From Escherichia coli (GTDB lineage Bacteria > Pseudomonadota > Gammaproteobacteria > Enterobacterales > Enterobacteriaceae), in assembly GCF_003334785.1 (NCBI RefSeq), contig NZ_QOWV01000083.1: a stretch of 557 nucleotides of DNA; one strand, written 5' to 3'. Position numbers and translations under genes: made by a program. A model generated the notes under the pieces. It saw only the letters and a list, made by a program, of their open reading frames with translations. It ran no database searches and had not been told where the DNA came from. Within the stretch, counting starts at the first letter, position 1, and each line of letters begins with the position of its first letter. Below, piece by piece: positions 1-557 of this stretch.

Positions 1-557
1 CACCGTATTGACGCTTATTTATTGGTGAGTACTACGTTCCATGGCAGGAGTTCGTCAACACGGTTGGAGGGCCATTCCGGCAGTACGCTCAGAATATGGC
101 GCAGATACGCTTCCGGATCGATACCGTTCAGACGGCAGGTGCCGATCAGCCCGTACAGCAGTGCTCCACGCTCGCCGCCGTGATCGCTACCGAAGAACAC
201 GTAATTTTTCTTTCCGAGACAGACTGCACGAAGCGCTCTTTCCGCTGTGTTATTGTCCACCTCCGCCAGACCGTCATCACTGTAATAACAGAGGGCGTCC
301 CACTGATTCAGTACATAGCTGAACGCTTCGCCCAGTCTGGATTTTTTCGACAGCGTGCCATTCTTCTCCACCATCCATTCATGCAGCGACGTCAGTAACG
401 CTTTGCTTCGCTGCTGCCTGGCTGCAAGACGCTCTGACTCTGGTAATCCCCGTATTTCATCCTCGATGGCGTACAGTTCACTGATTCGCTTCAGGGCTTC
501 TTCTGCCGTCGCACTTTTGCTGCTGATGTATACATCGTGGATTTTTCGCCGGGCATG
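1..557 (-). mobile_element. Internal fragment of an IS66-family insertion sequence (3' part of the transposase gene plus 14 nt of downstream sequence); element ends not in window
   Basis: Inference from the transposase CDS filling the window. No terminal inverted repeat, target-site duplication or the upstream tnpA/tnpB-type ORFs can be seen within 557 bp, so the element boundaries and the specific IS name cannot be assigned. Confidence 0.8.
15..557 (-). CDS. tnpC: IS66-family transposase (TnpC/orf3-type), C-terminal portion; 5'-partial because the frame runs off the right edge of the window; stop codon TAA at 15..17
   Basis: Seen in sequence: my hand translation of the minus strand in the same frame as the 15..374 ORF stays open from 557 to 375 with no stop, giving HARRKIHDVYISSKSATAEEALKRISELYAIEDEIRGLPESERLAARQQRSKALLTSLHEWM joined directly to the track ORF (MVEKNGTLSKK...DNNTAERALRAVCLGKKNYVFFGSDHGGERGALLYGLIGTCRLNGIDPEAYLRHILSVLPEWPSNRVDELLPWNVVLTNK*). 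Established knowledge, recalled from memory and not database-verified: the HARR(K/R) motif, the NN-AER-LR ... K-N-LF-GS--GGER block, the LNG-DP--YL segment and the LLPWN C-terminal tail are hallmark conserved segments of IS66-family transposases such as IS66 and ISEc8-like elements. The symbol tnpC is the conventional name for this ORF type, not a specific element assignment. Confidence 0.9.
   Translation of the reverse strand, partial: HARRKIHDVYISSKSATAEEALKRISELYAIEDEIRGLPESERLAARQQRSKALLTSLHEWMVEKNGTLSKKSRLGEAFSYVLNQWDALCYYSDDGLAEVDNNTAERALRAVCLGKKNYVFFGSDHGGERGALLYGLIGTCRLNGIDPEAYLRHILSVLPEWPSNRVDELLPWNVVLTNK

Follow-up and report, generated by a model that had tools for sequence, protein, structure and literature searches.

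The 557-nt stretch of Escherichia coli DNA analysed here (the window) is the right end of a very common, already catalogued E. coli insertion sequence of the IS66 family, ordinary and intact-looking. Its first 17 bases very probably make up the inner portion of the right inverted repeat (IRR) in an ISEc23/ISEc47-type element, directly abutting the TAA stop codon of the transposase gene tnpC, with the tip of the element a few bases outside the window. The features of the window are listed below; throughout, position p of the inverted repeat (IR) corresponds to window coordinate p−16.

18..557, minus strand: last 180 codons of the IS66-family DDE transposase TnpC (translation, Pfam, NCBIfam, identical annotated copies)
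15..17, minus strand: TAA stop codon of tnpC, within the inner palindrome arm (translation; annotated CDS end at locus position 3515, equal to window 15, in L001-L003)
1..14, minus strand: inner 14 nt of the 30-nt tail, IRR positions 17-30 (flank divergence, shared tails, 8-bp duplications)
3..13: CCGTATTGACG, conserved inner IRR block, IR positions 19-29 (conservation over 31 distinct IRRs)
8..17: TTGACGCTTA, inner arm of a perfect 10-bp palindrome (L001 3486-3495 and 3508-3517)
3..5: CCG, forming a second, 3-bp stem with CGG at −4..−2 (minimum-free-energy structures)

Results

The Window Encodes the C-Terminal Part of an IS66 Transposase

An open frame on the minus strand (window 15-557) runs through 180 sense codons without an internal stop and terminates in TAA, the complement of 15..17, which leaves exactly 14 nt, caccgtattgacgc, between the stop codon and the left edge of the window. 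Translation thus bears out the earlier note, made from the letters of the window, which had put the stop codon at this place with 14 nt to its left. Domain matches in Pfam and NCBIfam show that the frame is a real gene. On the 180 aa of the window, the Pfam family DDE_Tnp_IS66 (PF03050) covers residues 1-129 (E 1.2e-38) and the IS66 C-terminal element, DDE_Tnp_IS66_C (PF13817), covers residues 137-173 (E 1.6e-16). The NCBIfam model transpos_IS66 (NF033517) matches with an E value of 3e-51. Its 174.7 bits fall short of 180, the curated cut-off for whole proteins, only because less than half of the protein (profile positions 229-385 of 387) is encoded in the window. Both parts that characterise an IS66-type DDE transposase (TnpC), DDE_Tnp_IS66 and the C-terminal element, are found on the window protein, and the three models support the assignment to the IS66 family made in the earlier note. 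The tnpC gene extends past the right edge of the window.

Identical Copies Belong to Complete, Three-Gene Elements

The window is 100% identical to many chromosomal and plasmid copies in E. coli, and a match to it is present in 4565 of 5426 complete E. coli genomes. In the 100% identical copies, RefSeq labels the gene either as an IS66-like ISEc47-family or as an ISEc23-family transposase. One of these copies, L001, is chromosomal (NZ_AP022177.1), and the window corresponds to positions 3501-4057 of this locus. Here the complete element spans 2541 bp (locus 3485..6025), is flanked on both sides by the 8-bp duplication GTCTTATT, and interrupts a hypothetical CDS, which is split into two pseudogene halves. 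Its genes lie on one strand, tnpC at 3515-5128, tnpB at 5159-5509 and a 144-aa transposase/TnpA ORF at 5506-5940, and this identical copy therefore has the tnpA-tnpB-tnpC organisation, which reaches beyond the window itself. A second complete copy, L004, is 2532 bp long, has the same 30-nt tail and is flanked by the 8-bp duplication TTATTTAC. Both complete copies contain tnpA, tnpB and tnpC, GTAAGCG tips and 8-bp duplications.

Within its length, the window shows no difference from ISEc23 or ISEc47, IS66-family elements of E. coli and other Enterobacteriaceae, and it does not tell the two apart because both types share ~95% identity rightward of nt ~418. When L001 3485-6025 is compared with L004 196-2727, ~95% identity extends from nt ~418 to the right tip, and the first ~410 nt, which hold the left inverted repeat (IRL) and the start of tnpA, are just 46-65% identical. 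Such a mosaic left end probably explains the mixed ISEc47 and ISEc23 names on identical tnpC 3′ ends.

In most E. coli chromosomes there is also a right end with 99% identity, located under a CDS labelled only "transposase domain-containing protein" (rows H28-H60 of the tip search described below). Its map position is similar from one chromosome to the next, ~1.8-2.1 Mb (K-12-like CP042843.1 and CP026027.1, for example), and it looks like an old, fixed IS66 remnant.

The Element Ends 16 nt to the Left of the Window

The non-coding tail that follows the tnpC stop codon is 30 nt long, 14 of which are carried by the window, and it ends on the coding strand in ...CGCTTAC. The tip (IR position 1) is located at window coordinate −15, 16 nt left of base 1. 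Homology stops at this one base in six independent contexts. These are copies with 100% identity to the window and close relatives that share its 30-nt tail; the tail is found in L004, L005 and L011. Three unrelated flanks, one in a chromosomal ars-slp region, one on a plasmid and one in a chromosomal island adjoining an IS3 fragment, diverge exactly to the left of the GTAAGCG tip and are identical up to that G, and the DNA beyond the tip base is that of the host or plasmid. On the plus strand, the right end of L001 reads ...GTCTTATT followed by GTAAGCGTCAACGGAG and then by caccgtattgacgcttattt..., the last being the window part, and its opposite end reads ...GGCATTGGCTTTACGCTTAC followed by GTCTTATT... 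The 8-bp repeats around the complete copies L001 and L004 are target-site duplications, and duplications of the same length are found in L014, L015, L026, L027, L037, L039 and L049 and around the ISCro1 copy in L003.

The earlier note had placed the terminus of the element and its insertion junction to the left of base 1, in agreement with the end point common to the six contexts. It had further expected a short non-coding tail and then a terminal inverted repeat. The short tail exists, but the 30-nt tail is itself the inverted repeat, and it straddles the edge of the window. The 100 to 300 bp of leftward sequence that were thought to be needed turn out to be far more than enough, since the tip is 16 nt away and 24 nt already take in the target duplication. 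Both the IS66-type inverted repeat and the direct repeat that were to be searched for are present in the identical copy L001, as GTAAGCG tips and as GTCTTATT on both sides.

A query consisting of the tip plus 84 nt matched 12,487 places in E. coli, and in 59 of 60 evenly spread rows the match begins at the tip base. These rows bear on the scenario that would have overturned the earlier reading, in which another gene directly follows the stop codon, or the window's own copy has undergone truncation or rearrangement immediately left of base 1, so that the usual tip or junction is lacking. Remnants of the element do exist in E. coli, such as rows H82-H85, which match only tip positions 1-77, 1-60, 1-49 and 1-33, and the tnpC gene of L003 is cut on its 5′ side. 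However, all those remnants retain the tip and have lost internal sequence instead, and the 14 nt of the window are identical to IRR positions 17-30. We consider truncation of the window's copy to be very improbable because 59 of the 60 E. coli matches keep the tip and flanks diverge at the tip. Extrapolating from the identical copies, the window's own copy would have an intact tip and junction, and its left neighbour on the coding strand is expected to be GCTCCGTTGACGCTTAC, followed by unrelated DNA.

The Tail Holds the Best-Conserved Block of the Right Inverted Repeat

To place the tail within the family, 79 loci encoding relatives of the window protein were fetched, one genome per GTDB species, and the stop codon, the right tip and, where possible, the left tip were located in each. 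The resulting profile comprises 31 distinct IRRs and 17 distinct IRLs. Ends entered it if they had a G[CT]TTAC tip or started with GTAA; all of them begin with GTAA, nearly all with GTAAGC. IRR positions 1-6 are conserved at ≥90% and positions 7-8 at 70-89%. After a gap, conservation rises again at positions 19-28 (window 3..12), each of which is conserved at ≥90%, and position 29 (window 13) is conserved at 80-89%; the exact block CCGTATTGACG occurs in 21 of the 31 IRRs. Neither the conserved CCGTATTGAC core nor the stop codon includes window positions 14 and 8-10. Among the 17 IRLs, positions 1-8 and 19-24 (CCGTCT) are conserved, and positions 9-18 vary freely among lineages.

Many relatives at 52-97% protein identity have exactly 30 nt past the stop codon, with the pattern T[AG][AG]nCGTCAATACGG-n10-ACGCTTAC, and in other relatives the tail measures 36, 37, 40 or ≥50 nt. 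At tail lengths of 30, 36, 37, 40 and 50, the spacing of CCGTATTGACG is fixed relative to the tip, not to the stop codon. The 14 nt that the earlier note took to hold nothing recognisable therefore include, at window 3..13, the best-conserved block among the 31 IRRs. A reading of the same 14 nt as an unconstrained non-coding spacer, placed before a separate and more distant inverted repeat, would fit the lack of any repeat or hairpin visible inside the window alone. It is refuted by the alignment of the inverted repeats and by the conservation profile of the relatives: just 16 nt separate the window edge from the tip, and window 3..12 are conserved at ≥90%, with window 13 at 80-89%, in relatives whose TnpC is 52-67% identical. 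We regard it as more improbable still than truncation.

In L001 the IRR is GTAAGCGTCAACGGAGCACCGTATTG and the IRL is GTAAGCGTAAAGCCAATGCCGTCTGT, an imperfect terminal inverted repeat starting with GTAAGCG, of which the window itself has only positions 17-30. The first six bases of CCGTATTGACG, CCGTAT, match CCGTCT of the IRL. The comparison of the two ends that the earlier note had proposed yields a mixed picture. Positions 1-8 and 19-24 are shared by IRL and IRR, but in this lineage the overall match is only ~16/26, with positions 9-18 poorly matched, and because of this poor match the inner limit of the functional inverted repeat is imprecise.

IS66 elements are reportedly bounded by imperfect inverted repeats of ~20-30 bp that begin with GTAAGCG. 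The other IS66 elements that we compared (ISCro1, ISEc8-like, Mixta, Pantoea and Pseudomonas elements) likewise have repeats that start with GTAAGCG, the inner block CCGT(A/C)T and, at the right end, CCGTATTGACG at positions 19-29, and many of them also have exactly 30 nt from stop to tip, with lineage-specific bases at IR positions 9-18. They differ from the window's element in two respects: IRL and IRR match at 22-24/26 positions in most other lineages, against 16/26 here, and most other IS66 elements are without the 10-bp tip-to-stop palindrome described below. The inverted repeats of ISPsk01, given as GTAAGCGTCCGGCGAACTCACCTT in a 2026 paper, are in agreement with the tip consensus (PMC12888890).

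Several groups of relatives showed features of their own. Mixta mediterraneensis Marseille-Q2057 (L037-L049, L051, L073) contains at least 13 copies of a 2650-bp (in some cases 2632-bp) IS66 member, in which IRL and IRR are the same over 22 bp (24/26 first positions) and several copies show clean duplications of 8 bp, suggestive of a recent burst. Some neighbouring Mixta copies have exchanged flanks, as in L040/L044 and L041/L043, pointing to IS-mediated rearrangements. IS66 copies are also found on contigs of Firmicutes and Actinobacteria metagenome-assembled genomes (MAGs) labelled Clostridia, Lachnospiraceae or Collinsella: L004, L005, L006 and L012 encode a protein 92-97% identical to that of the E. 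coli element, and L059 encodes a more distant relative at 53%. The near-identical copies are most likely due to binning contamination of short repeat contigs, not to inter-phylum transfer. In seven Pseudomonas loci (L061, L065, L067, L069, L074, L078, L082), no inverted repeat is found past tnpC, and TGATCCATGG... is found there instead, followed by an apparent putative ORF. This layout matches that of the passenger-carrying "tIS66" elements (PMC12888890).

A Tip-to-Stop Palindrome in the Window's Lineage

On the coding strand, the tail is laid out as TAAGCGTCAA-TA-CGG-TGCT-CCG-TTGACGCTTA-C. The outer palindrome arm, TAAGCGTCAA, occupies IR positions 2-11 (window −14..−5) and is part of the IS tip, and the TAA stop codon together with the next seven bases (window 17..8) is perfectly complementary to IR positions 11..2 (window −5..−14). 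Inside this stem, the second stem of 3 bp leaves a 4-nt loop centred exactly on the left edge of the window. The statement in the earlier note that the 14 nt show no recognisable hairpin or repeat is accurate inside the window alone, but their partners lie just outside, at −14..−5 and −4..−2; the hairpin goes unseen from the window because one arm lies beyond it. As RNA, the hairpin folds at −17 kcal/mol (z −5.7), with none of 200 shuffles equally stable, and as DNA at −12.7 kcal/mol (z −6.8). The left end has no comparable hairpin (−0.5 kcal/mol).

The hairpin could be selected, either as a 3′ stabiliser or terminator of the tnpC mRNA or as a DNA cruciform or single-strand hairpin that modulates the use of the right end. 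The perfect 10-bp and 3-bp stems, their RNA and DNA folding energies and the lack of such a structure at the left end all favour selection. Its distribution was traced along a neighbour-joining tree built from the C-terminal domains. The full stem is present in the window's clade (L002, L004, L005, L011), with 9/10 pairs in L006 and 7-8 in L007 and L008, and a full 10-bp stem with different loops is found separately in the distant L027 (Sodalis) and L029 (Acerihabitans), at 56-57% protein identity. Furthermore, the IRR and IRL of L027 disagree at positions 10 and 11, where the IRR bases complete the stem, and also at loop positions 16 and 19. That the stem recurs while its loops differ is a hint of some selection or of an exchange of ends.

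Against selection, the stem is missing in the close sisters L028 and L050 (4-5/10 pairs) and in ISCro1 (4 pairs). No covariation was detected over 19 distinct 30-nt tails: across the 13 pairs, 62.8% of cells are paired, compared with 62.4% after shuffling, and 268 of 500 shuffles reach the observed value. Among these tails only one cell is compensatory, and variation breaks pairs and does not compensate. Moreover, six of the ten outer pairs are automatic because two conserved blocks pair with each other, the TAA stop with the TTA of the tip and CGT with ACG. A family-wide conserved hairpin was rejected on the lack of covariation in the 19 tails and the missing stem in sister lineages. An intrinsic terminator was also rejected: the stem-loop is present, but there is no T/U-run, and a scan of the tail for terminator and promoter patterns returned 0 terminator-like and no promoter-like sites. 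The U-tract is missing because the element ends 1 nt past the stem, and the next bases are whatever flanks the insertion. A search of Rfam gave no match at E ≤ 1. Overall, the selected-hairpin explanation appears unlikely, if clearly less so than truncation or a spacer.

The centre of the 33-nt palindrome (L001 3485-3517), in the coding-strand loop TGCT, falls exactly between window base 1 and the preceding base. Assemblies can break at palindromes or repeat boundaries, and the position of the centre at the window edge may be due to chance or to the way in which the window or contig was cut.

The tail was also found on its own, as a 33-nt copy from tip to stop codon, in L083 1501-1533 (NZ_JBXYCE010000003.1; the same locus is in CP005999.1, an E. 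coli B7A plasmid), on an IncK/I-type plasmid with no other IS sequence nearby. It replaces ~265 bp of pilI-proximal backbone (pil region) that is present in L084 (NZ_CP116073.1); the deletion endpoint falls exactly at the palindrome base, and there is no target duplication or direct repeat. A mobile 34-bp, MITE-like mini-element was considered on this one solo copy and rejected, given that backbone is replaced, that no duplication is present and that the 34th base, C, is shared with L084. The solo tail looks like a deletion remnant, not a mobile mini-element.

At the opposite end of the element, CTAATTTAG occurs twice in L001 5944-5975 (coding-strand positions 51-82 from the IRL tip), 17 nt from start to start. 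The pair sits in a weak hairpin, AGAGCTCCTTCTAAATTAGACGGAGTTCT, just upstream of tnpA. For the 100-nt left end, the folding energy is −10.5 kcal/mol (z −2.0). These subterminal repeats could be a candidate operator or promoter-region element.

Discussion

The anatomy of the right inverted repeat and its conservation are read directly from the ends aligned here. In the arrangement that we favour, the element ends 30 nt past the tnpC stop codon in ...TTGACGCTTAC on the coding strand, with the 8-bp target duplication following the tip. The inverted repeat is bipartite, with a terminal block, GTAAGCGT (positions 1-8, beyond the window), and an inner block. Cleavage and strand transfer are presumed to occur at the terminal block. 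The inner block, CCGT(A/C)T, lengthened to CCGTATTGACG at the right end (positions 19-29), is presumed to be contacted sequence-specifically by TnpC, which would make window 3..13 a putative transposase-binding subsite. Both roles, cleavage for the tip and binding for the inner block, are inferred by analogy with other DDE insertion sequences; a literature search on IS66 end structure and on TnpC binding to these blocks returned nothing specific to them.

The 10+3 bp hairpin of this lineage is most likely a lineage-specific by-product or an accessory feature and not a requirement of the family. It resembles a rho-independent terminator or a 3′ stabilising stem-loop in being a GC-containing stem-loop of −17 kcal/mol at the end of a coding region, and differs from one in that the tail is without a U-tract of its own, is negative in the scan and is unconserved in relatives. 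That the hairpin is under selection for some role seems to us a doubtful proposition. A more specific form of the idea is distinctly doubtful: that in ISEc23/ISEc47 and, independently, in the Sodalis and Acerihabitans elements, the right end evolved to a near-perfect 33-nt palindrome selected for the tnpC message or for regulation of the end. If it were true, the palindrome would pair the cleavage tip with the transposase stop codon, and the hairpin would act either on the tnpC message, which it would protect or terminate, or on the right end, which it would occlude so as to regulate transposition. This would be an end-specific regulatory structure undescribed for IS66 elements. As a lineage-specific hairpin, it is a minor curiosity.

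The element is a known one with a typical, intact-looking end. The value of the finding lies mainly in correct annotation, in that the window reaches into the right inverted repeat of a catalogued IS66-family element instead of stopping short of it. IS66 right ends in unannotated DNA can, in addition, be recognised by a simple rule: GTAAGCGT and CCGTATTGACG follow each other at a distance of 10 nt, and the stop codon is often at positions 31-33.
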